A DNA stretch of 64,000 nt, taken from assembly GCA_049840735.1 (NCBI GenBank), contig JASGJN010000022.1, positions 384,001-448,000 of the forward strand. The letters are read 5' to 3'. This stretch comes from Anaeromyxobacter sp. GTDB taxonomy: Bacteria; Myxococcota; Myxococcia; Myxococcales; Anaeromyxobacteraceae. Within the stretch, counting starts at the first letter, position 1, and the number at the start of each line of letters is the position of its first letter. This document shows positions 11,172 through 56,921 of this stretch, piece after piece. The notes below the pieces were generated by a model, which was not told where the DNA came from, ran no database searches, and worked only from the letters and a program-made list of their open reading frames with translations. The position numbers and the translations under genes were made by a program.

Positions 11172-11189
11172 CTTCGGTTCCTCGGTGGA

Positions 11190-12347
11190 TCAGGCGGTGA
11201 CCGGCAGCGCGGCGGGCGGGGGCGCCTCGTGCACCCTGAGGACGCGGTAGAGGCTGTCGCGCTCGGCCGGCACGCGGCCGGCGCTGCGGATGAGCTGGTG
11301 CAGCGTCTTCTCGTTGAGCCCCTGCGGCACGGTGGAGCCGGCCATGTGGTAGATGCGCTCCTCGAGCACGGTGCCGTCGAGGTCGTCCACGCCGAAGGCC
11401 AGCGCGGTCTGGGCCAGCCGCTCGCCCAGCGAGACCCAGTACGCCTTGATGTGGTCGAAGTTGTCGAGGTACAGGCGCGCCACCGCCAGCGTGCGCAGCG
11501 CGTCGTAGCCGGTCGGCTTGGGGAAGGCCTTCCCGATCATGTTGTGCTCGGGGTGGAAGGCCAGCGGGATGAAGACCTGGAAGTGGCCGGTCTCGTCCTG
11601 CAGCTCGCGCAGCCGGCGCATGTGGTCGACCCGCTCCTCCAGCCGCTCGATGTGGCCGTACAGCATGGTGGCGTTGGTCCTCACGCCCAGCCGGTGCGCG
11701 GTGCGGTGGATCTCCAGCCACTGCTCGGCGGTGGCCTTGTCGTCGCAGATCTTCCGGCGCACGCGGGGGGCGAAGATCTCGGCGCCGCCGCCGGGGAGCG
11801 TGTCCAGGCCGGCCGCCATCAGGCGGCGCAGGACCTGCTCGTAGCTCATGCCGAACTTCTCGGCGAAGAAGTGGATCTCGATGGCGGTGAAGGCCTTGAT
11901 GGCCAGCTCCGGCCAGGCCTTGCGGATGCGCGAGAGGAGCTCGGTGTAGTACTCGAAGGGCAGGTCGGGGTGGAGGCCGGAGACGATGTGGACCTCGGTG
12001 ACCCCCAGCGGCCGGCGCGAGAGCACCTTCTCGACCGCCTCCTCCAGCTTCATGGTGTAGCCGTCGGAGGCGCGCTGGTCGTCCTTGCGGGCGAACGAGC
12101 AGAACTTGCAGCTGGCCACGCAGACGTTGGTGGGGTTGAGGTGGACGTTCCGGTTGTAGAACGCCAGGTCGCCGTGGCGCCGCCGCCGGACCACGTCGGC
12201 CAGCGCCCCCACCGCGCCCAGGTCGGCGGTCTGGAAGAGCTGGAGCGCCTCCGCGTCGGTGATGCGCTGGGAGGCCAGGACCTTGTCGGCGATGGCGCCG
12301 AGGCCGTCGCGGTCGAGCGCGCGCCGGGCCAGGGTGGAGAGCTGCAT
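11190..12347 (-). CDS. mqnE: Aminofutalosine synthase (radical SAM)
   Basis: LNPTNVCVASCKFCSF, EVHIVSGLHP, IKAFTAIEI, ATMLYGHIE, HIKAYWV, EERIYHMAG. Confidence 0.93.
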   Translation of the reverse strand: MQLSTLARRALDRDGLGAIADKVLASQRITDAEALQLFQTADLGAVGALADVVRRRRHGDLAFYNRNVHLNPTNVCVASCKFCSFARKDDQRASDGYTMKLEEAVEKVLSRRPLGVTEVHIVSGLHPDLPFEYYTELLSRIRKAWPELAIKAFTAIEIHFFAEKFGMSYEQVLRRLMAAGLDTLPGGGAEIFAPRVRRKICDDKATAEQWLEIHRTAHRLGVRTNATMLYGHIERLEERVDHMRRLRELQDETGHFQVFIPLAFHPEHNMIGKAFPKPTGYDALRTLAVARLYLDNFDHIKAYWVSLGERLAQTALAFGVDDLDGTVLEERIYHMAGSTVPQGLNEKTLHQLIRSAGRVPAERDSLYRVLRVHEAPPPAALPVTA

Positions 12348-30289: not shown

Positions 30290-33200
30290 GGCGTGGAAGC
30301 TCCGATGCGCTGGAACAGGTCGCGGAGGTAGTCGTCCGGCACGCCGGCTGCGGCGCCGGCCAGGCCCAGCACCACCGGGCGGAAGCGCGCCGGCGCGAGC
30401 CCTGGGGGCGCGTGGACGGCGAGGAGGTAGTCGCCCGGCTCGAGCGTGAGCAGGGCCTGGCAGCCGGTGGCGAGCGGGCGCTGGGCGGCGTCGGAGACGG
30501 TGCAGGAGAGGACCTCGGCCTCCTGTTGCAGCCCGACGCCCACCCGGCCCTGGCCGGCGGCGCGGAAGCGGAAGACGCGCGTCTCGCCGGGGCCGAGCCA
30601 GCGCTCCGGCCCGGCGCCCTCGGTGAGGGGCTCGACCGGCTCGGTGGTGAAGCGGACGGCGCCGGCCGGCGGCTCGCCGGCGAAGGGGCGCACCGCGAGC
30701 CGGTGCGTGCCGGCCGGCAGGAGCTGGTCCAGGGCGCAGGGGCCGCCCAGGCCGCCGGCGGCCACCAGCGCGGCGCCGGAGGCCAGCGCGCAGACGCCCG
30801 CGTCGGCCCGCAGGTGGACCAGCGCCGGCGCGGCCAGCGTGAAGGACCGCTCCAGCGGCGCCGGGGTGAGGGCCGCGGCCTCGCCGGCGCGGAGCGCGGG
30901 GGCGCTCGCCGCGAGCGGCCGGCCGTAGGCGGCGGCAGGGCCGGCGCTGGTCGGGCGGGCCAGGGCGCGGAGCGGGCCGCCCGCGTCCAGCAGCACGTCG
31001 GCGGCGAGCCCGGCCGGCAGCGGGGCGGTGCAGGCCTCCCGGCGCGAGCCGTCGGAGAGGCGCACCAGGCAGCGGGCGCCGCCGGAGACCTCCAGCGTCC
31101 GCTCCGCCGGGGCGGCGGGCACGCGGAGCAGCAGCGGGCCGGGCTCGAGCCGCGCCTCGAAGGGCTCGGCGCCCAGCACGCGCTCCGGCGGCGGGGCGGG
31201 GAGGGTCACCAGCGTGGCCTCGACGCGCCGCTCCTCCGGCGCCCACAGGAACAGCTCGCCGCCGCCGGGCTGCAGCAGGCAGCGCGCGAGGCGGGCGGCG
31301 GGCGGGCAGAGATCCAGCGCGCGCCCCTCGGCGGAGAGCAGCACGGCCCAGGCCGCGGGCGGGAGGAGCAGCTCCAGCCGCGACGGGCCCGCGGGGAGCG
31401 GGAGGCGGGCGGCGGCGTCGGCCAGCGTCAGGACCTGCCGGCCCGGCTCCAGCCGGCCGCCCGGCTTCGGCAACGCGATGGCGGCGCGGGTCAGCTCCAC
31501 CTCCACCGGCGCGTCGGACGGCGCCAGCAGGCGCGCGGTGGCGCTGGTGCCGGCGGCGCCGGCGGCGTAGCAGGCGGCCTCGCCGGCCGCGCCGGGCGAG
31601 GAGACCCCGCCTTCGAACGCGCACCAGGGCGCGGCCCGCTCGCCGGGCGCGGCGCGGGCGGCAAGCAGGTGGACGGCGCTGGCGCGGCTGCGCTGCACCT
31701 GCACCAGCGGCCGGCGGGTCAGGCCCTGGCGCTCGGTGGCCGGCGCGTCCACCGCGGCGGCCAGCTCCTCCAGCGCCACGCGCGCCTCGGCGCCCGGCGC
31801 GGCGAAGAGGACCGGGCCCGCCTCCAGCGAGGCCTCGGGCCCGCAGGGCTGGAGCAGGCCGGGCTGGCCGGCGGGGGCGCAGCGCAGGCCCGCGCCGGTG
31901 CGCCAGCGGCCGGCGTGCGCCACGGCGGCGAGCCCCGCGCCGGTGGCGGCGACGGCGCCGCCGGCGGAGAGCGGCGCGGCGATGCGCACCCGGAGCCGCG
32001 CCAGCACCTGCGCCGGCCGCTCCAGGGTCCACAGCCGCAGCCGGTAGGCGGCGCCGGCGGGGTGGAGCAGCGCCGTGCAGGTGCGCGTCTCCAGCTGCGC
32101 GTCCACCACCGCGCCGGCGGCGTCCTCGAGGGCGCAGGAGAACGGCGACGGGGAGGCCAGCGCCACCTCCACCACCTGGGCGGGCGCGCCGCGGGTGCCG
32201 GCGGGGAGCGCCGCGGTCAGCACCTGGTCCGCCAGCGCGTAGGTCTTCCCGTCCTCCAGGGCGCCCACGTCCTGCAGCGCCGGGGCGGAGAGCGAGAGGC
32301 GCGTGGTGCCGGAGAGCTGGGTCTCGCTCTCCAGCGCCAGCCTGTAGTCGCCGGCCGGGAGCGGCTGCGCCAGCGCGCAGTTCCAGTCGTCGCCCAGCTC
32401 GCCCGACTCGGCGGCCAGCCGCCCCGCCGCGTCGAAGAGCCGGCAGCGCACGTCGGTGTCCCCGCGGGTCCGCAGCCGCAGCGTGCCGGCCTTCGGCAGG
32501 CGCACGGTGACCTCGGAGGGCACGGGCAGCTCGCGGGCGGAGCCGGGGGTGAGGAGCTCGCTGGTCAGCTGGAGCGTGTAGGTGATGGCCACGTCGCCGC
32601 GGCTGTGCTCGGTCACCAGCCGGTAGCGGCCGGCGGCGAGCGAGAGCACCGGACCGCTGGGCTCGCCGGGCGGCGCCGGCGGCGGGCGCCGGTAGGCCAC
32701 CGGCTTCTCCTCCGGCGCGGGGTTTGGGGCGGCCTCCTCGCCCGGGTCCCCGGGGGCCGGCAGGTCCTCGATGAGGCCGTCGGCGGAGGCGTCGTCGTAC
32801 GAAGGCGCGTCGTCCGAGGACTCGTCGCCGGGCGGCGCCTCGCTCCGCTCGTCCTGCGAGACGTCCTGGTCGCCGATCCCGTCCTGCGCCTCGCCCTCCC
32901 CGTACCCCTCGTCGGGCTGCGCCGGGGCGCTCTCCTCCGGCGAGCCGCCGCCGGCGGCCGGGACCAGCTCGACGGGCCGGTCCTCGCCCTCGCGGTAGAG
33001 CCGCCCCTGCATGCCGTTGGTGAGCGTGACGCGGAGGTCGAGGTCGGCCACCAGCGTGAAGTCGAACGTGTCGTGGCCGCCGCCGGAGAGCTCGACCACG
33101 TAGGGCGTCCAGAGCGCCACCGGGTGCGGGGCCTCGCCGCGCAGCACCTCCGGCGGGCGCACCGGCGCGAGGCGCGTGTGGCGCATGCTCTCGACGGTGA

Positions 33201-35644
33201 GCGGCAGCTGCGTCCAGAGCAGCTCGCCGGCGGGGAGCGGCAGCTCCAGCTCGCAGCGGCCCGGCACGCGGAAGAGCGGCCAGCCTTCGGGGTCCTCGAG
33301 CCGGCACTGCAGCGTCGCGCCCGGGGCGGAGGTGGAGAGCGCGTGCGGGCCCGCGGCGGCCACGCTCAGCCGCTCGCGGACCAGCTCGCCGGCCGGGACG
33401 CGGAAGAAGGCCTCGCCGTCGTCGGCCACCGGGGCCAGCTCGCGCACGGGCCGGTGCTCGAGCACCACCCCGGCGCGCCCCCGGCTCCGGCCGGTGGCGC
33501 GGACCGTGAGCAGGTAGCTGCCGGGGTCGAGGTAGGCGGCCACCAGGCAGTTGCGGCCGCGGCCGCCGCCCTGGTCCTGGGCCAGCTGCACCACCGTGGC
33601 GGTGCGCAGGGTGCACGCGGTGGCCAAGAGCCCCTCGGTGCGGGCGTGGTAGAGCCCGGCGGGTCTCGACCTTGAAGGTGAAGGCGTGCGGCTCGTCCGG
33701 CGCCAGGTCCAGGAAGGCCGGCTGGCCCGGCGCGAGCGCGGGCAGCGCCACCGCCGCCGGGCGCAGCGCGGTGAGCGGCGGCAGCGGCCTCGGCGGCTGG
33801 GGCGGGCGGTCCAGGCGCAGCGCGCGCGCGCCGCCGGCGGGCGCGTTCAGGACGAGCTCGTCCGCGCCGCTGGCCTCGACCACGCAGGCGCCGTCGCGCA
33901 CCACGCCTGCGCCGCCGCGGGAGAGCGCGCAGGTGGGCGGGGCGCCGCGGGCGGCGCGGACGCGGATGGGGCCGGCGGTCACCGGGAGGCTCACCGTCTC
34001 GCCCGGCGCGAGCTCCAGGGGCAGCGGCTCGGCCAGCGTCAGCGGGAGGGGGCGGGCCACGAGGCCGCGCACCGGCGCGGCGCCGGTCCGGTTGGTGGAC
34101 AGGAGGTACGGCGCGTCGCCGGAGAGGCGGACGCGCATCAGGCAGCCGGTCACCGCGGCCGAGTCGGCCGACGGGGCCGGGTCGCCGTCGGCCACGATGC
34201 GCAGGCGGTCGATGCCGGACGGCCCGCCGGAGATGCGCAGCTCGTAGCGGCCCGGCTCGAGCCGCTGCTGCAGGTCGCAGCGCGGCTGCTCGCTGGTGCG
34301 CGAGAGGCGCTGGGTGCCCTCCGCCAGGCGGTACAGCTCGCAGCGCTCCTTGCGCGCCGGGTCGGTGGAGAGGCGGTAGCCGGCGGCGTCGGCCACCTCG
34401 AACCAGATCGACTGGTCGCCGGTGGTGTTGAAGGCGCGGTGGAGGGGCCGGCCGCGGCCGACCCGGGGCAGGTCCACCGCCAGCAGCTCGCGCGGTCGCA
34501 AGGGGGGATCGCGGAACAGGGCGCAGCCGAGCGGCGCGGCGTCGGCGTCGGGCGGGGTGTCGTGCAGGCCGACCAGGTAGTCGCCGGCCGGGAGCGGCTC
34601 GATGCCCAGGGCCGGGGCGCTGGGCCGGTACTCCCCGTCCACCAGGCGCGGGGCGGCGGAGCGCGGGGCCCAGTGGAGCTGGACGCGCGTGCCGGGCGCG
34701 CCGCGGACCGAGAGGAGCTGCGGCTCGCTCCCGCGGTCGCTGGACCAGGCCACGCACTCCGGCGAGACGGCGCGCGGCTCGACCTGGCAGGTGGCGCGCT
34801 CCTGGAACAGCGCCGGGCCGTGCACCGTCAGCGCCACCGGCGTGGCCGGGGCGGCGTCGAGCGAGAGGATGGCGGTGAGGCCGGCGCGCGCCGGGGCCCT
34901 CTCCGCCGCCGGCGGGACGGCCACCACCACCAGGCCCCAGGGCGGGAGCGTGAGCGCCATGCTCCGCTCGGCCGGCGGGAGGCCGAGCTGCACCGAGAGC
35001 TGATCCGAGGCGGGCCCCTGCGTCCACTCCAGCGGCGCCGTGCCGTAGACGGTCAGCAGGTGGTCGCCGGCGTCGAGCGTGGTCTCGAGCCACCACTCGT
35101 GGATGGGCTGGCCGGCGCGCGGCGTGGGGGCGAGATCGCGGGCCACCACGTCCTCGCGCCACTGGCCGGCGCGCCAGAGCTGCACCTGCCCGGCCGTCCG
35201 GCCGGAGGCGCGCACCGCCACGGCCTGGCGGCTGTCGAGGTGGATCCAGAACGAGGCCTGCTGGCCGGAGGGGAGCGGCTGCTCCACCGCCCGCCCGGGC
35301 TGGAGCTGCACCGGGCTGGCGTTCAGCTCCTGGAACGGCACCGCCTGGAGCGCGGCCGCACCCTTCCCCGCGACCGGCGAGGCCAGCCGGAGCTTGTAGG
35401 TGCCGGCGTCGAGCAGCAGGTCCACGCGGCAGTCGGCGACGCCCGCCTCACCGCTCTGCTGGAACGGGCCGCGGAGGTGGTCCACCACCGTGCAGGCGGT
35501 GCCGCCGCCGCCGCTGGCGGCGAGCCGCACCATGCCGGCGCGGTCCACGGTGAGGAGGGCCTCCTGCGCCCCGCGGGCGGGGACGGAGGCAGGCTGGACC
35601 GCGGTGCTGCCCAGGAGCAGCGGAAGGGCGACCAGGACGAACAT
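30286..35644 (-). CDS. Giant secreted repeat protein (~1785 aa), apparent +1 frameshift at 33661-33663
   Basis: ATG 35644 with a signal-like start. Removing one base gives FKVETAGLYHARTEGLLATAC, joining the 30286-33627 ORF. Recurrent C-x(n)-C...L-x-[PA]-G-x-Y modules. Confidence 0.78.
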
Positions 35645-35686
35645 GGAGCCTCGCGCGAGCGCGGGTGGAGTCTTTCGCCGGCAGAT

Positions 35687-35702
35687 AGCAACCGGCGGGC
35701 CA
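35687..35702 (-). promoter_or_regulatory. Sigma54-type -24/-12 promoter candidate for the A2M/pbpC operon
   Basis: Minus strand TGGCCCG-CCGG-TTGCT, GG-N10-GC spacing, about 43 nt upstream of ATG 35644. Confidence 0.6.
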
Positions 35703-37680: not shown

Positions 37681-37920
37681 TCCTTCGGCGCCTGTCCATC
37701 CCGCTCCTGCGGCGCCTGTCCATCCCGCTCCTGCGGCGCCTGTCCATCCCGCTCCTGCGGCGCCTGTCCATCCCGCTCCTTCGGCGCCTGTCCATCCCGC
37801 TCCTGCGGCGCCTATTCATCCCGCTCCTGCGGCGCCTGTCCATCCCGCTCCTGCGGCGCTTGTCCATCCCGCTCCTTCGGCGCCTGTCCATCCCGCTCCT
37901 GCGGCGCCTGTCCATCCCGC
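37681..37920. repeat. Minisatellite: 10 tandem copies of a 24-bp unit
   Basis: Unit TCCTKCGGCGCCTGTCCATCCCGC, 240 bp in total, no spacers. T variant in units 1, 5 and 9; private changes in units 6 and 8. Confidence 0.97.
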
Positions 37921-37921
37921 C

Positions 37922-39127
37922 TCACTCCCTCCACGTCTCCAGCACCACGTCGTCGTAGAGGACCTGCCCCTCGTAGTAGTTCGCGTGCGGGTCCCCGAAC
38001 ATGAACCAGTCCGGCCAGGCACCGCCTGCGGGCCAGCGCTGGACGTCCGGCGCCGACGGGTAGCCGGACGTGTCCTCGCAGCCGCGGGCCTGGGCGGCCT
38101 CGGCGGCGTCCACCGGCCAGTGCCAGACGCAGCGGGCGGACGCGTCGATGGTGGCGCGGTAGGTGGTCTCGCCGCCGAACTCGAACCGGCCGGAGACCTC
38201 CATGGTGTAGGTGCCGCCATCCCGCTCCACGGTGACGCGGTACCACTCGCCGGGCAGGTAGCGGTCGGCGGCGCGGATGGTGCCGTCCGGCTGCCACTGG
38301 CCGGCGGCCCAGGAGTAGAACGCGTTGCCGACCTTCTCGTCGGCGGGCCGGGACCCGTCCAGCGCGATCATCATCACGGGGCGCTCGCCGGAGGAGCGGA
38401 AGCGCTGGCCGTCCCAGATCTCCATCCACGGCGGCGAGTGGTTGTCCGAGTCGATCACCAGCTTCCTGTGGTGGTGGATCCAGGTGTTGTTGTGCGGGCG
38501 CGGCTGCGCGTCCAGGATCGACACCCAGTAGAAGCCGTTCTGCGAGGGCGCCAGCGCGTCCGGCCACCAGGGGCCGGCCCGCTCGTCGCCGCTGTCGTAG
38601 CCGTTGAGCCCCGCCAGCCCGTCGCCGAACCGGGCGAAGCCGACGCGCAGCGAGAGCCGGTAGCGGGCCGGGAGCGGGGCGGTGGGGCGGACCACCAGCG
38701 CGTCGGTGTGCGCCGGCGAGGCCACCCGCAGCACCTGGTTGGCGGGATCGGCTGGGTCGTTCACCACCGCGGCCTGGTCGGCCAGCGACGCGCCCGAACG
38801 CCGGGTGTACGCCTCGGCGGTGAGCCAGCCGTCCGCGCCGAAGGGCACCGAGGCGCGGTAGGCGGCGGGCGGCGTGACCCCGCGCGCGGTGAAGTAGGCG
38901 CCGGCGTCGGCGAAGGGGCCGTCGTCGGGCACCGGATCCGGCGCGAAGGCGCCGGCCGGCAGCGCCGCGTCGAAGCGCTCCTCGGCCGTCACCACCCAGC
39001 CCGGACCCGCGGGTGGGACCGGGGTCTCGGGAGCGCCGGAGGGGGCGGGCGGGCCGGCGGGCGGTCCACCGGTGGAGCCGCAGGCGAGGAGGACGGCGGC
39101 CAGGGAGGCGCAGGCGAGGCGGTGCAT
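37922..39127 (-). CDS. Hypothetical lipoprotein (~401 aa)
   Basis: MHRLACASLAAVLLAC lipobox, Pro-rich linker, aromatic-rich body with GC3 bias. Confidence 0.8.
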   Translation of the reverse strand: MHRLACASLAAVLLACGSTGGPPAGPPAPSGAPETPVPPAGPGWVVTAEERFDAALPAGAFAPDPVPDDGPFADAGAYFTARGVTPPAAYRASVPFGADGWLTAEAYTRRSGASLADQAAVVNDPADPANQVLRVASPAHTDALVVRPTAPLPARYRLSLRVGFARFGDGLAGLNGYDSGDERAGPWWPDALAPSQNGFYWVSILDAQPRPHNNTWIHHHRKLVIDSDNHSPPWMEIWDGQRFRSSGERPVMMIALDGSRPADEKVGNAFYSWAAGQWQPDGTIRAADRYLPGEWYRVTVERDGGTYTMEVSGRFEFGGETTYRATIDASARCVWHWPVDAAEAAQARGCEDTSGYPSAPDVQRWPAGGAWPDWFMFGDPHANYYEGQVLYDDVVLETWRE

Positions 39128-46752: not shown

Positions 46753-49008
46753 TCAGCGCGCGAGGTCCGGGTAGGCCTGGCGCAGCAGCGCGTCGGCGGA
46801 GCGCCCGCCGCGCTGCGCGGCCTCCACGTCCAGCCCCTCCCCGTGCCCCTCGCCGCGCCCCTCGAACCGGACGGTGACGCCCCGCGCCTCGGCGCGGGTC
46901 GGGCAGGCCGGCAGCTTGAGCGGGCCGCGCAGCGCCTCGCAGGGCCGGCTGCGCCGCTCCTCGTAGGGCGCGGCCGGGTCGCCGCCGCTGGCCAGGAAGC
47001 GGACCTGGCCGCCGCCGAAGGCCAGCTGGCGGGCGCCGGGGCCGAGCGCCGCCTCCACCGCCGCCTGCGTCCGCTCGGCGCTCCAGGGCTCGGACCCGCC
47101 GCGGGAGAACGGGCGCCAGGGGCCGGGCGCGAGCGGCGCCGAGAGCGCGGCCCGGTCCTCCGGGTGGACCGGCGCGACGCCGCGGAAGGCCTGGCAGTGG
47201 GTGGTGTCGCAGGCCGGGCGGCCCGGGTGGCGGCCGGCGGGGGACTGGCCGTTGGCGTCGGCCACGCGGGCCAGCGCCACCCGCGCCTCGCCGGCCAGCC
47301 CGTCGGCCTCGGCGGCCACCACGCCGGCCGCGTAGCCGAGCCGGGTGGCGCGGAGCACCAGGTCCGAGCCGCGGCGGGCGCGGGCCTCGCGGGCGGTGGC
47401 GGGCGTGCCGGTGGAAGGGGAGGGGGCGCGGGCCGGCGCGGGCGGCGCCCAGGTGAGGACGCCGGCGTAGGTCCGCAGCGGCACGCCCTTCCCCTTCACC
47501 TCCCAGCCGCCGCCGGCGCAGACCAGCGGCCCCAGCCTGGCCAGCGGCGCCAGCGGCGCGAACCCGGCCGGCGTCGCCACCGGGCCGGCCGATGCGGCGG
47601 CGAACCCGGCGCCGGCGCAGCGCGCCTCCAGCGCCGCGGGGTCCACCAACCCCAGCACCTGCACCCGCGCCGCCCCGTCGGCCGGGGTGCGCGCGCGGGC
47701 CAGCGCCGCGGCGAGGTCGCCGGCGAAGCTGCGCGGGGTCCGGCCGCTGCGCACCATCACCACGACCACGTCGCGGTCCACCGCGGCGACGAGCCCGAGC
47801 CGCGGGTTGGCGGCCGCGTCCAGCACGGTGCCGGTCTTGAGGGCCACGCCGCGCAGCGCGGGGGAGGCCGGGAGGCCGGAGAGCGTCCCCTCGGCGGCGT
47901 TGCGCGAGAGGACGTCCACCAGGTCGGGCCGGGCCTCGGCCAGGAGCCGGTAGGCCTGGGCCAGCCCCAGCGGCGAGAGGCGCAGCGAGGGCTTCACGCC
48001 GATGGCCTCGGCGCCGTCGGCGGGCAGCGCCGAGAGCCCCAGCGCGCGCAGCGCCGGGCCCCAGCGGCCGAAGCCGATCACGGCCGGCGAGCGGGCCGCC
48101 CAGTCCAGGAACCAGCCGTTGCAGGAGCGGAGCAGGGCGGTGGCGGCGTCCACGCGCGCGGGGAGCTCCGGCCCGCAGCGCCAGGTGGCGCGGCCCGGGT
48201 CGGGGGCCAGCGCCGGCAGCGGCCCGGGCGCGCCGGCCAGCAGGAAGGGCTTGAGCGTCGAGCCGAAGGGGATGGGCGCACGCGCCGCCCCCTCGGCCAG
48301 CAGCACCTCGCCGCCATGCCGGGACAGGACCACCAGCGCGTCGCCGGCCGGCGCCTCCGGCGCGGCCAGGTCCTCCGGCCGGAGCGGGAGCCAGCTGGCC
48401 CCCGCCTCGCAGCGCCCCAGCGGGCGCGCCAGCGCCGGGGGCAGGCGCCCGGGGCGCGCCGGGGTCTCCGCCAGGAGCCGCGCCAGCGCGCGGCGCGCCG
48501 CCGGCGTGTCGAGCGCGGCCGGGTTGGCGCCGGCCGCGGCCTGCCGGGCCTGCAGCGTCCCGATGGCGCGGGCCAGCGGCAGGTAGCGCTGCCCCTCCTC
48601 GGCGGCCGCCCAGCTGGCCAGCTCGCCGCTGGCCGCCAGCGCGAAGGCCTCGTGGAAGAGCCGGTCGCCGGCCGCGGCGGGGCAGGCCTCCAGCAGCAGC
48701 TGGTGGGCCACCTCGTGGCGCAGCGCCAGGCCGCCGGCGCCGGAGAGCGGCAGCTCGGGCCGCAGCGCGATCACGCCCGGCCGGCTCTGCCCGGCCTCGG
48801 CCGGCCCCAGCGCCGCCGGCAGGAGCCGCACCGGGCGGGGCGCGGCCGGGAGCGCCACGCCCTCGGCCGCCAGCAGCGCCGCCTGGTCCTCCCAGGCCCG
48901 CGCCGCCAGCGCCTCCGCCTCGGCGGGCAGGCCGCCCCCGGCGCGGAAGGCCGGCGGCGGCGCGGGGGCCACCGCCAGCAGCGCCAGGGCGGTCGCGGCC
49001 AGGATCAC
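46753..49008 (-). CDS. YfaQ-like multidomain protein (HExxH, PBP-transpeptidase-like and SpoIID/LytB-like domains)
   Basis: LRHEVAH...FHEAFA; GSTLKPF, RSCN, KTGT; VVAAE...CDTTHCQAF...GEGHGEGL; last gene of the yfa-like operon. Confidence 0.72.
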   Translation of the reverse strand: MILAATALALLAVAPAPPPAFRAGGGLPAEAEALAARAWEDQAALLAAEGVALPAAPRPVRLLPAALGPAEAGQSRPGVIALRPELPLSGAGGLALRHEVAHQLLLEACPAAAGDRLFHEAFALAASGELASWAAAEEGQRYLPLARAIGTLQARQAAAGANPAALDTPAARRALARLLAETPARPGRLPPALARPLGRCEAGASWLPLRPEDLAAPEAPAGDALVVLSRHGGEVLLAEGAARAPIPFGSTLKPFLLAGAPGPLPALAPDPGRATWRCGPELPARVDAATALLRSCNGWFLDWAARSPAVIGFGRWGPALRALGLSALPADGAEAIGVKPSLRLSPLGLAQAYRLLAEARPDLVDVLSRNAAEGTLSGLPASPALRGVALKTGTVLDAAANPRLGLVAAVDRDVVVVMVRSGRTPRSFAGDLAAALARARTPADGAARVQVLGLVDPAALEARCAGAGFAAASAGPVATPAGFAPLAPLARLGPLVCAGGGWEVKGKGVPLRTYAGVLTWAPPAPARAPSPSTGTPATAREARARRGSDLVLRATRLGYAAGVVAAEADGLAGEARVALARVADANGQSPAGRHPGRPACDTTHCQAFRGVAPVHPEDRAALSAPLAPGPWRPFSRGGSEPWSAERTQAAVEAALGPGARQLAFGGGQVRFLASGGDPAAPYEERRSRPCEALRGPLKLPACPTRAEARGVTVRFEGRGEGHGEGLDVEAAQRGGRSADALLRQAYPDLAR

Positions 49009-49011
49009 GGG

Positions 49012-52000
49012 TCACCGCGCCGCGGAGGGCACGATCTCCAGCGTGGTGGCCGCGGTCCGGCCGTGCACGCGCGGCGCGTACATGTCCTCGATGGTGGCGG
49101 GCGGCGCCGAGAAGCGGCCCGGGAAGGCGGCGCGCATCACGTAGCCCACGGTGCGCGGGCTGGCGCTCCACCAGGCCGGCTCCTCCAGGTAGAAGAGCGC
49201 GCGCTCCGGGGAGAGCGAGCGGCGCTTCACCGCCTCGTGCCCCAGCGGCAGGTCGTAGGGCGGGCCGCGCCAGGCCTTGTCCTCGGAGAGCGGCGCGAAG
49301 CCCGCCGGCACGGCGTCCTCCACCACCGTGTAGGCGGAGCGGAGGGCGCGCCAGCCGTCGCCGGCGTGGGCGTCGAGGGTGAGCTCGACGTAGACCTCCT
49401 CACCCTGCGTGACCTTGTCGCCGGCGCCGAGCGGCTTCCGCTGGCCGCCCGGGAGCAGCCGGTAGTAGCGCCGCTCGATGGACATGCCCTGCGCCTCGGC
49501 CTTGACCGAGGCCAGCGGCACGCGCACCCGCGCGCGCAGCTCGGCCTGCCCCTCGAACGCCGCCACCGTGACCGCCTTGACCGACGGGTCCAGCCGGGCC
49601 GACTGGCCGGCGCCGCGGGCCTCCAGCTTCACCGCCCCGCCGCCCTCCGCCTTCACCTCCGGCGGCGGCGCCGCCTTGAGCGCCTTGGCCTCGCGCTCCA
49701 CCAGCCAGAGGCTGTGCAGGATGGCGGTGGAGCGCTCGAAGGTGGAGAGCGCGCCGCGGTCGGCCAGCGCCTCGGCCAGCCGCCGCCGCGCCGCCGCCAC
49801 GTCCACCTCGCCCAGCGAGGCGGCGTGGCCGATCACGGCGGTGAGGCCGGCGCGGCGCAGCGGGTAGTGGTAGGCCACCTCGGGGTCGAGCTGCAGGCCG
49901 GCGGGCTGGGCCAGCGCGTCGCGCGCGCGGGCGGTCAGCACCGCCAGCGCCGCCTTGACCGGCGGCTCGGCGGCGATGCCGGCCCGGTCGGCGGCCAGCG
50001 CCGCCAGGGCCACGGCGTAGAGGTCGGGGTTGCCCGCCTCGCCCACCCTGGCCAGCAGCGCGCGCACCCGCACCGCCTGGCGCGGACCGTCCAGCCGCGC
50101 CAGGACGTGCACGCGGGTGGCCTCCAGCTCCAGCGGCAGGTCCTCCCTGGCCTCGATCCAGCGGGCCGACTCGACCACCCGCGGGTCGTCACGCGAGAGC
50201 AGCCCGGCGTCGATGGCGTAGGTGAGGCCGTCCAGCGCGATCAGCGTGAGGGGCACCGAGGGCTGGTCCTCGCCGGAGAACCAGGTGAAGCCGCCGCCCG
50301 GGCGCGCCAGCGCCAGGATCCGCTCCAGCCCCTGCGCGGAGCGGGAGCGGGCCTCGGCCAGCAGCGCGCGGGAGGGCGCGTCGAGCGCCTCGAGCTGCCC
50401 GGAGGTCTCGAGCAGCCGCTGCAGCGCGATGTTGGGCACGGTGGTGGAGACCAGCTGCTCCAGGCAGCCGTGCGGGTAGGTGAGCAGCTCGTCCACCTGC
50501 GCCATCATCAGCGAGAGCGTGGAGGGGCGGAGCGCCAGCTGCAGCTCCTGCACCTGCGCCCCGGCGGGCAGCTCGAGCGCCAGCCGGCCGCCGCCGGAGG
50601 CGGAGGCGGTCAGCACCTGCTCCACCGAGCCGGGCCGCACCGGCACCTCGCGCCGGTCGGCCAGCGGGCGGTCGCCCCCCTGCAGCGCCAGCACCACCCG
50701 GCCGCCGCCGGCCTTCGCGGCCTCCAGCGCCACCGGGATCACCTGCTCACCCTTGGCGGCCAGCGCCACCGAGGCCTTGACCGGCGCGCCGGAGAGGGCG
50801 CCGTCCAGCGCCACCGCCAGCTCCACCTTGCCGGCCTGCCCCTTCTCGCCGCGCGCCAGGCGCACCGAGCCGACGGCCCGGTCCCCTTCGCGCAGGAAGA
50901 GCGGCGCCGAGGCCACCACCAGCGTGCCGCCGCGGGCGGTGAACTCGCCGGTGCCCTCGCCGAAGCGCCCGGAGGCGTCGGCGGCCACCGCCGTGACCGT
51001 CCAGATGGTCTGGTTGGCCGGCAGCGGGAAGGTGACCGTGGCCCGGCCGTCCTCGTCGGTGGTGACGGCCGGGTGCCAGAAGGCCGTGTCCACGTCGCGC
51101 TGCTGGGTGGGCGGCTTCACCGCCGCGAAGGCGTGGCCGCGGGCCAGGAAGGCGCGGGCCAGCGCCTCGCCGTAGCCGTACCCCTGGAACTCGGAGGACG
51201 TGAAGGTGGCCACGTTGTTGCGGACCAGCGGGTAGAAGAAGTCCAGCGCGCGCGGGCGGAGCTCGCCCTGCAGCGCGTAGATGGCCTTGTCCACCACGCC
51301 CACCGAGAGCTGGGCGCGCACGCCGTGGCCCTGGTGGTCGGTCACGCGCAGCGCCAGCGTCTGCGGGCCCAGCGGCTCGGCCTCCGGCCGCTCCGGCGAG
51401 ATGCTGACCTGGAGCAGCCGCTCCAGCGGGACGATCCGGAACGGCACGGTCCGCTCCTCCCAGCGCCCGGCGGCGGTGGGGTAGGCGACCGAGGCGTAGA
51501 CGGCGCTGCCGAAGCGCTTCTCCACCGGGAAGCGGTGGATGAGCGAGAGGCCGTCCACCTCGACCAGCCGGGTCTCGAAGAGACCGGCGCCGGAGAGCGT
51601 GACCCACACCCGCCCCTTGGCCTTGCCGTCGGGGCCCCAGCGGTCGGGGAAGAGGGCCACCAGCTCGGCCTCCTCGCCCGGCGCCAGCGCGCCGCCGCGC
51701 GAGGCCAGCTGCAGCGCCGGCACCCGCACCGACTCCTGGCCGTCCTTGCCCACCACCAGCAGCGAGGTCTCGCCCGACCACTCGTGCCCCTGGGCGTCGA
51801 GCAGCTTCACCCTCGCCACCACCGTGCCGGCCGCGGGGGCGGGCAGGGCGCAGCGCCAGGTGCCGTCGTCACCGGTCGTGAACTCGGCCTCGGAGAGCTT
51901 CTTCTCGTCGCCGTCGGCGCGCCGCAGCGCGAACGCGACCTTGCCCTTCACGCCGCCCAGCGCGGCGCCGGAGAGGCGGGCCGAGCGGACGGCCAGCGTC

Positions 52001-53754
52001 GAGTCGGCGCCCTCCAGCGTGACCACGCCGCCGGCGCGGAGCGTGCCCAGCACGTCGGCCGGGGCCAGGAAGAAGGGGCGGGCCGACCCGGCGAAGGCGC
52101 CCTGGTCGTCGCGGGCGCGCACCGAGACGCTGTACTTCCAGGGCAGCCGCTCGTCGCCGGCGCCCAGCGCCGGCACCGGGAGCTCCACCGTGGCCTCTCC
52201 GTTCGCGTCCAGCTCGGCGGCCTTGGCCCAAGGGTCCTCGGCGTAGGTGTCGCCGCGGGCCTCCAGCGAGGAGTAGAGCCGCTCCGGCACCGAGAGCTTG
52301 CCCTCGGTGGTGGAGGCGGTGCCGTAGGTCACCGCGCTGCCCTGGCCGCCCAGGCCGGCGTCGTCCACCCAGGCAGGGCTGTCGAGCTGCGTGCGGTAGA
52401 GGAACACCTCGTAGCGCGCCCCCTCCGGCGCGCCGCCGGAGTAGCGGCGGGCGCGGACGTGCACCTTGACCGTGCCGCCGGGCTGGATGGCCTCGGTGTC
52501 GCCGGTCACCTCCACGTAGAAGGTGGGCTTCACGTAGTCGTCCACCCGGGCCTCGGCGCCGTGCGGGGCGCCGTCCACCCGCGCCTCCAGCCGGACCACG
52601 CCCGGCTCCACGTCGCCCGGGACGGAGAGCCGCCCGTAGAAAGCGCCGAACTCGTCCACCTTGGCGCGCGCCTCGAGCTCGCGCCCCTCGGCCACCTGGA
52701 GCGACACCTCCACCTCGCGGCTCTTCGGGGTGAAGAGCCGGGAGAGGAAGGCGTCCGGCTGGCGGACCAGGCCGCGGAAGAGCACGTCGTCGCCGGGGCG
52801 GTAGATGGGCCGGTCGGTGTAGACGAACACGTCCGGCGTGGCCGCCAGGGTGGAGTAGAAGTCGGTGTCGACCAGCGCCTGGTCCTCGCCGGCGCGCGCC
52901 ACCACCATCACCCGCGGCTCGCGGGTGGAGAGCCGCACCTCGCCGCGGTCGCCGGTCTTGCCGCTCGCCACCACGGCGCTGCCGGCCCGCACCTGCACCT
53001 CGGCGCCCTGGACCGGCGCCAGGTCCTGCCCGGCCACGCGGACCAGCAGCTCGCCGTCGGTCTGCTTCACCTGCACCTTGAGGTCGGTGACGACCAGCAC
53101 CACCTGGCCCTCCACCTTCCCCTGCACCAGCTGGACGAGGTAGACGCCAGCCGGGAGCGGGTCGAGCGACACCTTCCGCTCCTCCCAGCTGCCGCCGTTC
53201 CACTCCTCGAAGCCGGGCACGTTGTAGTCGCGCTCCGGGCCGCCCAGGTCCAGGTTGAGCCAGGTCTGGCGCACCAGCGTGGTGCCGGGCGGGAGCCCGA
53301 CCAGCTTCTCCGGCCCCTCCGCCAGCCGCACCACCGGGCGCCGCTGCCCCTCGGTGCCGGTGCGGGCGGGGACCGCCTCGGCCAGCTCCTGCCTGAAGGT
53401 CTCGCCCAGCGCGTTGTAGAGGTAGGTGCCGGGGAGCCGGGCCGCGTTGACGCCGCGCGACAGGTAGCGGCCGGGGTTCTCCTGCGTGTCCGGCTGCGCG
53501 TAGGCGCGGCGCAGGTTGGCCTGCTGGGCCAGGAAGCGGTCCAGCGAGTCCGGCTTCACCACGCGCAGCTCGACCGGGCCGCGCCGCTCGAAGGCCAGCT
53601 CGAGCACGGGCGCCTCGCCGGTGCCGTAGGTGCGCGGGACGGTCAGGTAGAGCGGCTTGGCAGCCTGGGCCGGGGCGGCGGCCAGGGCCAGGGCGGAGAG
53701 CGCCGCCAGCGCCAGGAGGCGCGCGGGCATGGGCGGGGTGCGGATCTTGCTCAC
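49012..53754 (-). CDS. Alpha-2-macroglobulin family protein (YfaS/MagD-like)
   Basis: YTDRPIYRPGD, DYVKPTFYV, GVVDKAIYALQ, DTAFWHP, YPHGCLEQ, PATIEDMY; signal peptide. Alternative in-frame starts: ATG 53730 and GTG 53868. Confidence 0.9.
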   Translation of the reverse strand: MSKIRTPPMPARLLALAALSALALAAAPAQAAKPLYLTVPRTYGTGEAPVLELAFERRGPVELRVVKPDSLDRFLAQQANLRRAYAQPDTQENPGRYLSRGVNAARLPGTYLYNALGETFRQELAEAVPARTGTEGQRRPVVRLAEGPEKLVGLPPGTTLVRQTWLNLDLGGPERDYNVPGFEEWNGGSWEERKVSLDPLPAGVYLVQLVQGKVEGQVVLVVTDLKVQVKQTDGELLVRVAGQDLAPVQGAEVQVRAGSAVVASGKTGDRGEVRLSTREPRVMVVARAGEDQALVDTDFYSTLAATPDVFVYTDRPIYRPGDDVLFRGLVRQPDAFLSRLFTPKSREVEVSLQVAEGRELEARAKVDEFGAFYGRLSVPGDVEPGVVRLEARVDGAPHGAEARVDDYVKPTFYVEVTGDTEAIQPGGTVKVHVRARRYSGGAPEGARYEVFLYRTQLDSPAWVDDAGLGGQGSAVTYGTASTTEGKLSVPERLYSSLEARGDTYAEDPWAKAAELDANGEATVELPVPALGAGDERLPWKYSVSVRARDDQGAFAGSARPFFLAPADVLGTLRAGGVVTLEGADSTLAVRSARLSGAALGGVKGKVAFALRRADGDEKKLSEAEFTTGDDGTWRCALPAPAAGTVVARVKLLDAQGHEWSGETSLLVVGKDGQESVRVPALQLASRGGALAPGEEAELVALFPDRWGPDGKAKGRVWVTLSGAGLFETRLVEVDGLSLIHRFPVEKRFGSAVYASVAYPTAAGRWEERTVPFRIVPLERLLQVSISPERPEAEPLGPQTLALRVTDHQGHGVRAQLSVGVVDKAIYALQGELRPRALDFFYPLVRNNVATFTSSEFQGYGYGEALARAFLARGHAFAAVKPPTQQRDVDTAFWHPAVTTDEDGRATVTFPLPANQTIWTVTAVAADASGRFGEGTGEFTARGGTLVVASAPLFLREGDRAVGSVRLARGEKGQAGKVELAVALDGALSGAPVKASVALAAKGEQVIPVALEAAKAGGGRVVLALQGGDRPLADRREVPVRPGSVEQVLTASASGGGRLALELPAGAQVQELQLALRPSTLSLMMAQVDELLTYPHGCLEQLVSTTVPNIALQRLLETSGQLEALDAPSRALLAEARSRSAQGLERILALARPGGGFTWFSGEDQPSVPLTLIALDGLTYAIDAGLLSRDDPRVVESARWIEAREDLPLELEATRVHVLARLDGPRQAVRVRALLARVGEAGNPDLYAVALAALAADRAGIAAEPPVKAALAVLTARARDALAQPAGLQLDPEVAYHYPLRRAGLTAVIGHAASLGEVDVAAARRRLAEALADRGALSTFERSTAILHSLWLVEREAKALKAAPPPEVKAEGGGAVKLEARGAGQSARLDPSVKAVTVAAFEGQAELRARVRVPLASVKAEAQGMSIERRYYRLLPGGQRKPLGAGDKVTQGEEVYVELTLDAHAGDGWRALRSAYTVVEDAVPAGFAPLSEDKAWRGPPYDLPLGHEAVKRRSLSPERALFYLEEPAWWSASPRTVGYVMRAAFPGRFSAPPATIEDMYAPRVHGRTAATTLEIVPSAAR

Positions 53755-53892: not shown

Positions 53893-55322
53893 TGGCGGTC
53901 CTTCGCGACGCCGCGCAGGCCGACGTACGGCAGCTCCTCCAGCAGGCGGCGGGCCGCCTCGATCTCCGGCGCCACCTTCTTGCCCCGCTCCGAGGTCCAG
54001 GCGTCGCCCAGCAGGCGCGAGAGCGCGCGGCCGGGGTTCACGCCCAGGCCCAGCGAGACCGGCTGGCGCAGCCCCTCGGCCACCGCGGGGGCGGCGTCCA
54101 GCATGGACGGGGCCTTGCCGTTGCAGCTGCGCTGCAGCGTGGCGGCCAGCGCCGGGGTCGAGGCCAGCACCACGTGGCCGCAGGCGCGGGTGGTGGCCAG
54201 CACGTTGCCGCCGCCGGTGAAGGCGTCCTGCAGCGCGGCCGCGTCGCGCTCCGGCCAGGCCAGCGCGACCTCGGTGTCGAGGGCGTCGGCGCCGCGCGGG
54301 TTCCAGACCAGCGCCACCGTCCGCGGCGCGCGCTTGCCGGAGTACTTCCTCGCCAGGTGCGCCTTGAGCGAGGCGCGGTCGAGCGGCTCGGGCAGGTCCA
54401 GCGTGGCCAGCACCACCAGGCCGGCGTCGCCGGGGAGGAGCTTCAGGAGCTTGTCGGAGGGGGCCGCCGCGGCCAGCCGCTGCGGATCCTCCAGCTCGCC
54501 GCCCAGGCCGCGCGGCACCAGCCGCTCGCCCTCGACGCCGAAGAGCAGGCGCGGCGCAGGGCCCAGCCCCAGCAGCGCGAAGCCCAGCTGCGCCTCGCGG
54601 CCGAGCCCCTCGCGCGCGATGGAGACGGCCAGGTCCACGCCGTCGCCGCGCTCGACCGCCGGGGGCGGCAGGCAAATGGCCTGCACCACCGGGATGGGGT
54701 TCTTGGCCAGGTAGAGCTGGCCGTCGCGCTGCGCCGCGAAGACGGCGTGGTCGGCCACCAGCCAGCGCGAGACCACGATCTTCTCCGCCAGGTCCTTGTC
54801 GGCGCCGGGGCAGCGGGCCGCCTCGAAGCGGCCGCTGCGGGTGGCGCCCTCCATCAGCTCGAAGGCGCCGCGCGCCGAGGAGGACGGGTCGGGCACGATC
54901 ACCGCCGGGCTCCCGGTGGCGCCGGGGCCGCCGTAGAGCACCACGCGGAAGGGATTGGCCAGCAGCCGCGAGGCCACCAGGTCCGCCACCGTGCCCTCGA
55001 AGGCGCCGGAGAGGTCGGTGCCGCGCGTCCCCAGGAACGCGCCCCAGTCCCCGCCGAACCCCTTGCCCAGCGGCTCGGCCAGCGCGCGCTTCGTCCACTC
55101 GCTGCGGAGCGAGGCCTTCCAGACCGCCTCGGGCGCGTAGACGTCGGCGTAGATCGACAGCTCCGGCGCGGCGTCGCCGGCCTGGAGGGCGATGGGCGGC
55201 TTGGCGTCGGCGCCGCCGCTGCGGGTGTGCCGGGCCTTCAGCAGGGCCACGCCTGCGACGGAGCCTGCCACGAGCAGGATCGCGCCCGAGGCGGCGAGGA
55301 GGAGCTTCGTTCGGCGGGTCAC
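53865..55322 (-). CDS. Membrane-anchored hypothetical protein in the YfaA position of the operon
   Basis: GTGA-coupled start VTRRTKLLLAASGAILLVAG (single TM). Homology to YfaA is inferred from gene order only. Confidence 0.7.
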   Translation of the reverse strand: MTRRTKLLLAASGAILLVAGSVAGVALLKARHTRSGGADAKPPIALQAGDAAPELSIYADVYAPEAVWKASLRSEWTKRALAEPLGKGFGGDWGAFLGTRGTDLSGAFEGTVADLVASRLLANPFRVVLYGGPGATGSPAVIVPDPSSSARGAFELMEGATRSGRFEAARCPGADKDLAEKIVVSRWLVADHAVFAAQRDGQLYLAKNPIPVVQAICLPPPAVERGDGVDLAVSIAREGLGREAQLGFALLGLGPAPRLLFGVEGERLVPRGLGGELEDPQRLAAAAPSDKLLKLLPGDAGLVVLATLDLPEPLDRASLKAHLARKYSGKRAPRTVALVWNPRGADALDTEVALAWPERDAAALQDAFTGGGNVLATTRACGHVVLASTPALAATLQRSCNGKAPSMLDAAPAVAEGLRQPVSLGLGVNPGRALSRLLGDAWTSERGKKVAPEIEAARRLLEELPYVGLRGVAKDRQLVPGGFRS

Positions 55323-55904
55323 GGGGTCCACTCCTTGAAGCGGTAGAAGCCGAGGAAGAGGGGGTTCTCGGCGGTGGGGCGCCAGCCGCCGGGGGCGTCG
55401 CTGGCCAGCGCCTCCAGCCGGCCCACGCGCACGGCGGCGCCGGGCTCGCCCGGGTGGTAGACGACCAGGGCCTGGCCGTGGCCCGGATCGTCCGGGACCA
55501 CCGCCAGCATGAGGTGGAAGACCGGGCCGGACGCGTCCTCGCGGCCGAAGGCCACCAGGTCGCCGGAGCGGAGCGCCGCGCGGGCCGCCGCGTCGCGCCC
55601 CAGCGGCGCGAAGGAGCCGCGCAGCAGCGTGGCCGCGTCGGCGAAGTGGGCCGGGCGCCCGGCGGCGTCGAGGAAGAGGCCGCGCGCCACCCGCGCCGGC
55701 GCGAAGCGGGCGAAGGCGGTCCGGTAGGCGAAGCGGACCAGCCCTGCGCAGTCGCGCTGCGCCTCCTCCCAGGCCGGATTCGACGCGGCGCCCCTGCGCC
55801 AGCGCCGTCTCGGCGATCATCCGGCGCAGCACCGCCTCCGGCGGCGCCGGGGCGGGCGCCGGCGGCGAGGCCAGCGCCGCGGCCAGGAGGAGCGAGGGGA
55901 GCAT
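55319..55904 (-). CDS. DUF1175/YfaT-like protein, apparent +1 frameshift at 55779-55780
   Basis: Removing one base gives RRVDPAWEEAQRDCAGLVRFAY; later GDLVAF, FHLML, VVYHPG, WRPTAENPLFLGFYRF. Confidence 0.8.
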
Positions 55905-55906
55905 GG

Positions 55907-56812
55907 TCAGTAGGCCTCGCCGCCGTCGCCCTCGTCCGCCGCCTCGCCGTGCGCCAGCCCGGCGGCCACCGCCTCCAGGTTCTGCGGCCAGGGCGCGCCC
56001 GGCGCGGGGTCCTGCCCCGGCACGTAGACGTCCGCCTGCTGCGGGCCGAGCACGTTGACCCAGGCCAGCACGCGGGTGGTGCCGGGCGTGGCCAGCGGCA
56101 CGCGCACCACGCGCTTCACCTCGGCCGGCGTCCCCTCGAACAGCGTCAGGTTGAGCGTGCCCACGGTGTGGGCCTTGTCGCCGGAAGGCCAGTAGTTGGT
56201 GGCGATGAGGAAGACGCCGCGCGGCGGGGCGCGGTGGATGTAGAGGTAGGGGCCGTAGCCGGGCTGGTCGAAGCTGCCGCCCTGCTCGTTGAGGAAGAAG
56301 GTGCCGCCGCTCGGGCTGGCGGTGCGGGCCCAGTAGACGTGGGCCATCTTCGCGAGCTGCAGCGCGCCGTCCGGCCCCACCGAGGCGGCGGTGGGCTCGT
56401 AGATGTGCAGGTCGGTGTAGACGCCGTCGGTGTCGCTGGTCAGGACCGCGCGCAGCGGGACCGGCGGGACCTGGGCGTAGCAGGTGACCTGGGCGGTGGT
56501 GGTGCCGCCGCGGTTGGTGCCCAGCGCGGTGACCACGTTCTTGCCGGCGGCCGCCGGGAACTTGCGCGAGAACCGGCCCTGGCTGGTCCGCAGCAGGTAG
56601 CGGTCGCCGTTGATCGAGATGGTGATGGGGTCCACGGTGGGGTCGGAGACCGTCCCCTCCACCAGGATCATCCGCCCCACGCTCCAGCCGCCCGAGGGGG
56701 CGGTGAGGTGGATCTCCGGCCGCTGCGTGCCCTGACCGATGGGCATGCCGGCGTCGCGCGCCGGCGCGGGGCCGGCGGCGAGCAGGAGGGCTGCGAGCGT
56801 GGCTGCGAGCAT
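55907..56812 (-). CDS. DUF2135/YfaP-like secreted protein
   Basis: Signal peptide, Ig-like N-terminal part, LRAVLTSDTDGVYTDLHIYEP, PGYGPYLY, TNYW. Confidence 0.75.
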   Translation of the reverse strand: MLAATLAALLLAAGPAPARDAGMPIGQGTQRPEIHLTAPSGGWSVGRMILVEGTVSDPTVDPITISINGDRYLLRTSQGRFSRKFPAAAGKNVVTALGTNRGGTTTAQVTCYAQVPPVPLRAVLTSDTDGVYTDLHIYEPTAASVGPDGALQLAKMAHVYWARTASPSGGTFFLNEQGGSFDQPGYGPYLYIHRAPPRGVFLIATNYWPSGDKAHTVGTLNLTLFEGTPAEVKRVVRVPLATPGTTRVLAWVNVLGPQQADVYVPGQDPAPGAPWPQNLEAVAAGLAHGEAADEGDGGEAY

Positions 56813-56921
56813 CGATGGACCCCTCATCCCGCGCGGTTGGCCAGTGCTCCCGCCCGCGGCGAGGCCACGGGCAGCCGAGCGGGGGCGCGATGATACCCGA
56901 GCGTGTCGCCCGGCTCGCCTC

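Follow-up and report, generated by a model that had tools for sequence, protein, structure and literature searches.

The 64,000 nt of Anaeromyxobacter sp. DNA analysed here (GenBank assembly GCA_049840735.1, contig JASGJN010000022.1, positions 384,001 to 448,000 of the forward strand; the window) contain an operon built around a mag-type alpha-2-macroglobulin (A2M), and its yfaQ/magE-type gene encodes a protein that is a variant of the known but unexplained YfaQ/MagE kind. Three catalytic modules can be assigned to this protein: a zinc peptidase of the gluzincin type (the zincin), a penicillin-binding protein (PBP) transpeptidase fold, and a SpoIID-type lytic transglycosylase. Judged from sequence and structural models, there is about an even chance that it is an exported three-module partner of the A2M in which damaged peptidoglycan is trimmed by the PBP and SpoIID modules, with the zincin acting on the A2M.

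The first-pass annotation of this DNA had described three catalytic motif sets in one YfaQ-like protein, had called for a fold-based assignment of domains, and had named lack of conservation in homologues as grounds for giving up the idea. The three sets are borne out: gluzincin and PBP folds were found in the model, the SpoIID part was assigned by profile, and the core residues are retained in all 90 full-length representatives compared. The base use of the open reading frame (ORF) is of the coding type, and all the motifs named in that annotation are present at the coordinates of Table 1. The full-chain model has a mean predicted local distance difference test score (pLDDT) of 89.5 and a predicted template modelling score (pTM) of 0.79. 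The single 751-aa sequence matches nothing in Pfam, NCBIfam or PDB sequences; the matches came from alignments only.

A homologue search returned 262 proteins, the best 120 of which show 49-70% identity, and the named homologues among the matches listed belong to Anaeromyxobacter, Archangium, Corallococcus, Stigmatella and their kin. The motif residues are almost all invariant in an alignment of 53 close homologues. When representatives at 50% identity were searched with a profile, 618 matches were obtained; conservation was drawn from the 150 of these that were listed, with shorter rows dropped to leave 90 sequences of at least 650 aa (the query and 89 others). Residues H98, E99, H102, E120, S250, K253, S295, K391, G393, E567, C600, C605 and H722 are present in all 90, the median column conservation of the same set being 0.29, and N297, H594 and H604 are kept in part (65/90, 79/90 and 82/90). 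One subgroup has S-D-x in place of SxN. When the protein was shuffled 20,000 times, neither the ordered PBP triad nor the SpoIID pattern appeared once, and HExxH with a downstream Glu appeared in 0.14% of shuffles; a chance origin of the motifs is rejected by these shuffles together with the residue conservation. Confinement of the family to the Myxococcota was likewise rejected, by the profile search and by metagenome loci. As a separate observation, C278 and the Cys of SCN (residue 296) are kept jointly (64/90 and 65/90), a pair reminiscent of SpoVD-like PBPs, in which a zinc or disulfide site adjoins the active site (PMC9334274); a His ligand is not evident.

The PBP-type module (residues 220-446) superposes on B. 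subtilis PBP3 (7bn9) with Z 21.0 and a root-mean-square deviation (rmsd) of 2.8 over 211 aligned residues. Foldseek concurs with a PBP transpeptidase fold (E 3e-7), and the matches contributed by a viral fold library were all DD-peptidase-like or unnamed. Both marks of a penicilloyl-serine transferase, the predicted fold and the ordered SxxK, SxN and KTG, are present. In the model SxxK lies before a helix, SCN between two helices and KTG on a strand, which is the layout of PBP motifs described in PMC9334274. Fold matches and the position of the motifs in the secondary structure suggest that these would converge into active sites. The module is like the transpeptidase domains of class B PBPs and like class D beta-lactamases (Z 18-21 over 220-446, with the three motifs in the same order), but unlike class B PBPs it is compact, about 225 aa, and is without pedestal, membrane anchor or SEDS partner. 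Neither the model nor profile searches of the 751-aa protein gave a glycan-polymerising transglycosylase domain.

Residues 18-215, folded alone, gave Z 10.4 to tricorn factor F3 (rmsd 3.7, 177 aligned) and 9.7 to Grimontia collagenase, in a list filled by M1, M9, M4 and M30 peptidases. A Z of 10.4 is moderate for a helical domain, and the top rows are nearly all gluzincin folds; Foldseek on the zincin alone found nothing with E < 0.001 (best 0.034). The model combines a HExxH helix and a downstream Glu, the predicted third ligand, within a zincin fold, the features by which a gluzincin is recognised, and the residues concerned are kept in 90/90. As in the catalytic domains of M1 aminopeptidases and M9 collagenases (Z 10.4 and 9.7), the Glu lies on the next helix after HExxH. 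Unlike these, the domain is minimal, about 200 aa, at 12-13% identity, and is without the exopeptidase motif GAMEN.

Whole-chain fold searches list PBP folds only, and the SpoIID-type module is assigned by profile. Matches to SpoIID and PBP2 from an earlier profile (A1) were no more than weak; with alignment A3 the profile matched 4RWR, SpoIID of B. anthracis, at E 8.5e-13 and 5I1T at 6.4e-9, and PF08486 was matched by 25 of the 53 close relatives at E up to 0.1. Residues E567, H594, C600, H604 and C605 align to E101, H134, C140, H145 and C146 of C. difficile SpoIID, of which E101 is the catalytic Glu and the other four are zinc ligands (PMC6221140). The likeness to SpoIID of B. anthracis (4RWR) and C. 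difficile (5I1T/5TXU) includes the profile match, the catalytic Glu and all four zinc ligands. Unlike the sporulation proteins, however, the module here is fused to two peptidase modules and occurs in a non-sporulation, A2M-linked context.

The yfaQ-type gene begins 3 nt past the A2M stop, and the gene set on this minus strand is the yfa/mag set of E. coli and P. aeruginosa (PMC3735191, Table 2). The association with A2M was followed in genome loci (best 80 of 161) and metagenome loci (best 80 of 414). Among the 80 genome loci, the A2M is directly upstream in 68, about 7 kb away in one and not nearby in five, and six are without upstream DNA; it is thus directly upstream in 68 of the 74 loci having such DNA. 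An obligate A2M neighbour was rejected, as the gene stands apart from A2M in 6 of the 74, and for four of the five loci without a nearby A2M an orthologous A2M lies elsewhere in the genome. Across loci L002-L081 and L116-L190, the thioester motif CxEQ is present in 68/68 genome-locus A2Ms covering the site and also in the metagenome loci listed. In a tally of the phylum made by hand (yfaQ-type at E < 1e-20, A2M at E < 1e-60; kin are not independent), 301 genomes comprise 107 with both genes, 7 with the yfaQ-type gene only, 1 with a distant A2M only and 186 with neither, the unpublished genome G181 entering only among the 186. The zincin-PBP-SpoIID order was found in 31 of the 80 metagenome loci, with A2M directly upstream in 22, none within 8 kb in 5, and too little sequence in 4.

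The modules do not always occur together in this order. A second order, PBP-SpoIID-zincin (about 790-840 aa), is found in metagenome loci, with a C-terminal HExxH in 16 of 20 ORFs examined; its zincin is homologous to the N-terminal zincin here (HHalign 96%), and in 7 such loci the A2M is on the opposite strand. The Atlas contains a like-sized cluster of SpoIID plus transpeptidase, mostly from Acidobacteriota; the metagenome contigs themselves are without taxonomy. In 6 of the 7 genomes with the yfaQ-type gene only, the gene is reduced and has neither the zincin nor the SxxK/SxN core. Five genomes of one genus, and G183, have no orthologous A2M (best E 1e-20 to 1e-29) and match without the zincin part. 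The genes of G077, G092 and G183, read in detail, keep the N-terminal hydrophobic stretch and SpoIID and have lost the zincin and the SxxK/SxN core, and in a quick tree of the SpoIID module the losses fall in two separate lineages. Conversely, in Deinococcota plasmid loci a stand-alone zincin lies right after a CxEQ A2M in 4 of 5 cases; it is about 200 aa long, begins with a signal-like N-terminus and carries HExxH...EG. It is homologous to the N-terminal zincin here (79%) and to the C-terminal form (99%), and no PBP or SpoIID was matched in these loci. A plasmid search with a distant family member gave no match, and a SpoIID-PBP fusion lacking the zincin did not turn up next to an A2M. Because of this free zincin and of the zincin losses in genomes without the A2M, the zincin is taken to follow A2M, and SpoIID can outlive the zincin.

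Reduced genes with SpoIID and only edge strands of the PBP were seen at L106:8309-9679, L107, L108, L053:~9900-11430, L119, L126, L131, L149, L156 and L158. G092 has two copies of the reduced gene, one of them frameshifted.

E. coli YfaQ and P. aeruginosa MagE (PA4488; COG5445, Pfam DUF2300 plus SpoIID) occupy the same slot right after a mag-type A2M. The PBP and SpoIID parts are homologous to those of E. coli YfaQ (HHalign 78% and 77%, E 1.7e-5 and 2.2e-5); the whole-alignment HHalign was weak (5.7%), and the per-module comparison was used. Folds, conservation and gene order uphold both earlier claims, that the protein is of YfaQ identity and that it is tied to the window's second A2M. SxxK, the SpoIID Glu and HEYLH...E are invariant in 33/33 proteobacterial sequences of YfaQ/MagE, so that the motif comparison suggested in the first-pass annotation agrees for SxxK, the SpoIID Glu and HExxH...E, but SxN, KTG and the SpoIID zinc ligands are degenerate there. 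In the present protein these and the GHG motif are intact, whereas none is found in E. coli or Pseudomonas YfaQ. The zincin is N-terminal here, whereas the HEYLH domain of YfaQ/MagE is C-terminal, corresponding to the second order in worn form; an Atlas search of the MagE C-terminus gave no usable match. DUF2300 (PF10062) was matched by 0/53 close members at E 0.1 and by 0/47 distant members at E 0.01, and the protein is therefore filed as a rearranged YfaQ/MagE relative and not as a DUF2300 member. The A2Ms differ as well: CxEQ is present here, is absent from E. coli YfaS, and MagD is described as having no cysteine (PMC3735191).

The mag/yfa operon of P. aeruginosa and E. coli has been linked to chronic-infection fitness and to resistance to wall-targeting type VI secretion system (T6SS) effectors, and the role of MagE, the MagD-cleaving protease and the operon's mechanism are given as open in the papers cited. 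It is quite probable that the Ser250 and Glu567 modules trim damaged peptidoglycan. The Ser250 module would cut D-Ala-type stem or cross-link bonds in a DD-peptidase-type reaction; the SpoIID module, equipped with Glu567 and a structural zinc, would then remove stem-free glycan as anhydro-disaccharides, and this clean-up could ready the lesion for resynthesis by other PBPs. For the zincin, action on the A2M is given slightly less than an even chance, and action on stem peptides is possible at a lower likelihood. On the A2M, the gluzincin might clip the protein so as to mature it or turn it over, and wall clean-up would in this way be coupled to the protease trap.

According to PMC3735191, cleavage of MagD from 165 to 100 kDa takes place only when the operon is present, and the site is left open there. 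It can tentatively be suggested, though it is doubtful, that the HExxH gluzincin of YfaQ/MagE is the endogenous protease still lacking for the cleavage of mag-type A2Ms such as MagD, as a maturase dedicated to macroglobulins. When residues 18-445 were paired in a complex prediction with a piece of the A2M across the bait region, the score was 0.34 (runs 0.36, 0.00 and 0.34) versus 0.01 for the best control, with runs agreeing in at least 0% of contacts and a partner pLDDT of at least 80. Of solved pairs 116 of 157 reached the mark, as did 2 of 215 mismatched ones; at 0.60 or below it was reached by only 18 of the 157 and by both mismatches. The prediction lends weak support to the reading of a wall-trimming partner whose zincin works on the A2M, and shifts the balance little. 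If the maturase suggestion were true, the zincin would travel with A2M either as a free gene or joined to one or the other end of a wall-trimming PBP-SpoIID enzyme, and the operon would couple trap activation to repair of peptidoglycan lesions after attack by T6SS wall-lytic effectors.

All three sites could instead serve peptidoglycan in series, the zincin stripping or shortening stems, the PBP opening cross-links and SpoIID chewing bare glycan, with the link to A2M due to co-regulation. SpoIID is active only once an amidase has stripped the stems (PMC6221140), and a stem peptidase in the same protein would suit this; the three modules also stay in one chain in two domain orders, and the operon protects against wall-targeting effectors (PMC12663445). 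The comparative data run the other way: the zincin is kept alone behind A2M in 4/5 Deinococcota loci, and the two lineages without this A2M drop the zincin and keep SpoIID, the reverse of what is expected of a feeder for SpoIID. Because the zincin follows A2M also in loci with neither a PBP nor a SpoIID module, it may not be a peptidoglycan enzyme, and a series of three wall activities appears rather unlikely. The tracking of the zincin with thioester A2Ms would suit a zincin that destroys foreign enzymes (proteases, T6SS wall-lytic effectors) caught by A2M and not A2M itself, and MagD does protect against the peptidoglycan-targeting effectors VgrG3 and Tae1 by a route that is left open (PMC12663445). 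Unprocessed MagD in a magE deletion would be left unexplained by such an activity, which is considered improbable.

More improbable still is a PBP module that acts as a sensor as in BlaR1/MecR1 and not as a turnover enzyme, being acylated by wall fragments or beta-lactams and switching the zincin on. In BlaR1 a zincin is followed by a PBP module, and the order here resembles it; the BlaR1 and MecR1 sensor folds are among the matches (Z 16.8, 17.5), and SxN decays in 25/90 as SxxK and KTG stay. However, higher scores are reached by class B PBPs (Z 19-21), the rmsd of the BlaR1 whole-chain alignment is 24, no membrane segment lies between the modules, and the zincin stands by itself in Deinococcota and can occupy either end of the chain.

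Several observations weigh against the reading of a wall-trimming partner whose zincin acts on A2M. The Asn of SxN is missing in those same 25 of the 90 full-length representatives, and E. coli and Pseudomonas YfaQ/MagE have S-C-G and K-T-W and are without SpoIID zinc ligands. Homology between the zincin and the E. coli C-terminal HEYLH domain is not statistically supported (HHalign 0.6-10.7%). SpoIID requires stem-free glycan, though no amidase is evident, and a SpoIIP amidase partner was not found in the operon. Five metagenome loci (L142, L145, L146, L147 and L150) have a full-length gene with no A2M in 8 kb upstream, and in the fifth Deinococcota locus (L199) the A2M is without a zincin and without a CxEQ match. 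MagE, with its predicted signal peptide, was found in the cytoplasmic fraction and was not a co-immunoprecipitation partner of MagD (PMC3735191). The knockout data for magE are ambiguous, in that a legend ties loss of the 100 kDa form to magB and magC and the text gives magC no effect, and the authors of that work propose a chaperone or signal-peptide role. The genes of L142, L145, L146, L147 and L150 were separately noted to belong to the S-D-T subgroup and to sit alone in unrelated neighbourhoods.

The protein had also been proposed to serve the second A2M much as PBP1C serves the first. The first A2M (with CLEQ) and pbpC form a classical type I pair (22074-30289, minus strand), in which pbpC (22074-24530; SALK, SRN, KTG) follows the A2M, as had been supposed. 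The two thioester A2M systems are thus about 20 kb apart in one genome. The parallel holds in that a gene for a wall enzyme is coupled to one for an A2M, and fails for the activity: PBP1C polymerises and cross-links, whereas the yfaQ-type protein has two degradative-type modules, the glycan-cleaving SpoIID among them, and no transglycosylase polymerase. Because of this lack of a polymerase domain it is not a PBP1C equivalent, and a PBP1C-like synthase was rejected. Its description as a multifunctional peptidoglycan-remodelling enzyme is likely for the PBP and SpoIID modules and is less secure for the zincin, which may not act on peptidoglycan given that it follows A2M alone.

A literature search on YfaQ, MagE, DUF2300, PA4488 and macroglobulin with SpoIID, with most subscription journals outside it, found no description of these catalytic modules. 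The intact myxobacterial relative points to three enzyme modules as the make-up of MagE-type proteins and identifies which residues to mutate, and the free Deinococcota zincin and the paired losses make the question of MagD processing directly testable. Mag-type operons, published as carrying thioester-less type II A2Ms, can carry thioester A2Ms, which blurs the type I/type II split.

Table 1. Features of the yfaQ/magE-type gene, its operon and the stand-alone zincins
Feature	Coordinates	Strand	Basis
yfaQ/magE-type gene, 751 aa, last in mag-type A2M operon	46753..49008	-	ORF; GTG start; GC content at third codon positions (GC3) 0.99
Likely signal peptide, residues 1-16	48961..49008	-	Short hydrophobic N-terminus, judged by eye; relatives begin alike
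Gluzincin zinc-peptidase module, residues 18-215	48364..48957	-	Model pLDDT 96; fold matches
HEVAH zinc motif, residues 98-102	48703..48717	-	90/90; within helix 91-108
E120 (in HEAFA), predicted third zinc ligand	48649..48651	-	90/90; within helix 116-127
PBP transpeptidase-fold module, residues 220-446	47671..48351	-	Fold superposition
STLK (SxxK), residues 250-253	48250..48261	-	S and K 90/90
SCN (SxN), residues 295-297	48118..48126	-	S 90/90, N 65/90
KTGT, residues 391-394, on strand 389-396	47827..47838	-	K-[TS]-G-[TS] 90/90
SpoIID-type lytic transglycosylase module	46756..47670	-	Profile matches to 4RWR, 5I1T
E567 (in VVAAE), aligned to catalytic E101 of C. difficile SpoIID	47308..47310	-	90/90
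H594, C600, H604, C605 (CDTTHCQ = 600-606), aligned to SpoIID zinc ligands	47191..47229	-	Alignment, conservation
GEGHGEG, residues 719-725, C-terminal SpoIID GHG motif	46834..46854	-	Profile, conservation
mag-type A2M (yfaS/magD position), CLEQ thioester motif ~50466	49012..53730	-	Pfam MG2, BRD, A2M, TED, bMG10
yfaA/magB-position gene, 484 aa	53865..55322	-	No Pfam/NCBIfam match; named by position
yfaT/magC (DUF1175, NlpC/P60-like), frameshift near 55775	55319..55904	-	Pfam/NCBIfam match
yfaP/magA-position exported protein	55907..56827	-	No Pfam/NCBIfam match; named by position
Stand-alone gluzincins, unannotated, Meiothermus/Deinococcus plasmids	L196:11180-11776, L197:8065-8673, L198:9152-9796, L200:8989-9573		Directly after A2M; three with weak DUF1570 matches

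Neither a promoter nor a terminator was found at the 3' end of the yfaQ-type gene. Relatives of the yfaT/DUF1175 gene are uninterrupted near 55775, and the window copy retains the Cys of D-C-A-G-L and a downstream His; its frameshift is either an assembly error or the mark of a pseudogene. DUF1175 has been termed an inactive peptidoglycan-binding NlpC/P60 domain (PMC10318531). Upstream of the first A2M lies a large exported protein (30286-35700, minus strand), seemingly split by a frameshift near 33700, where the high-GC3 frames switch; its C-terminal part has no Pfam match. A tandem repeat of about 24 nt in about 10 copies lies at ~37700-37930, and its plus-strand translation is a repeated LLRRLSIP.

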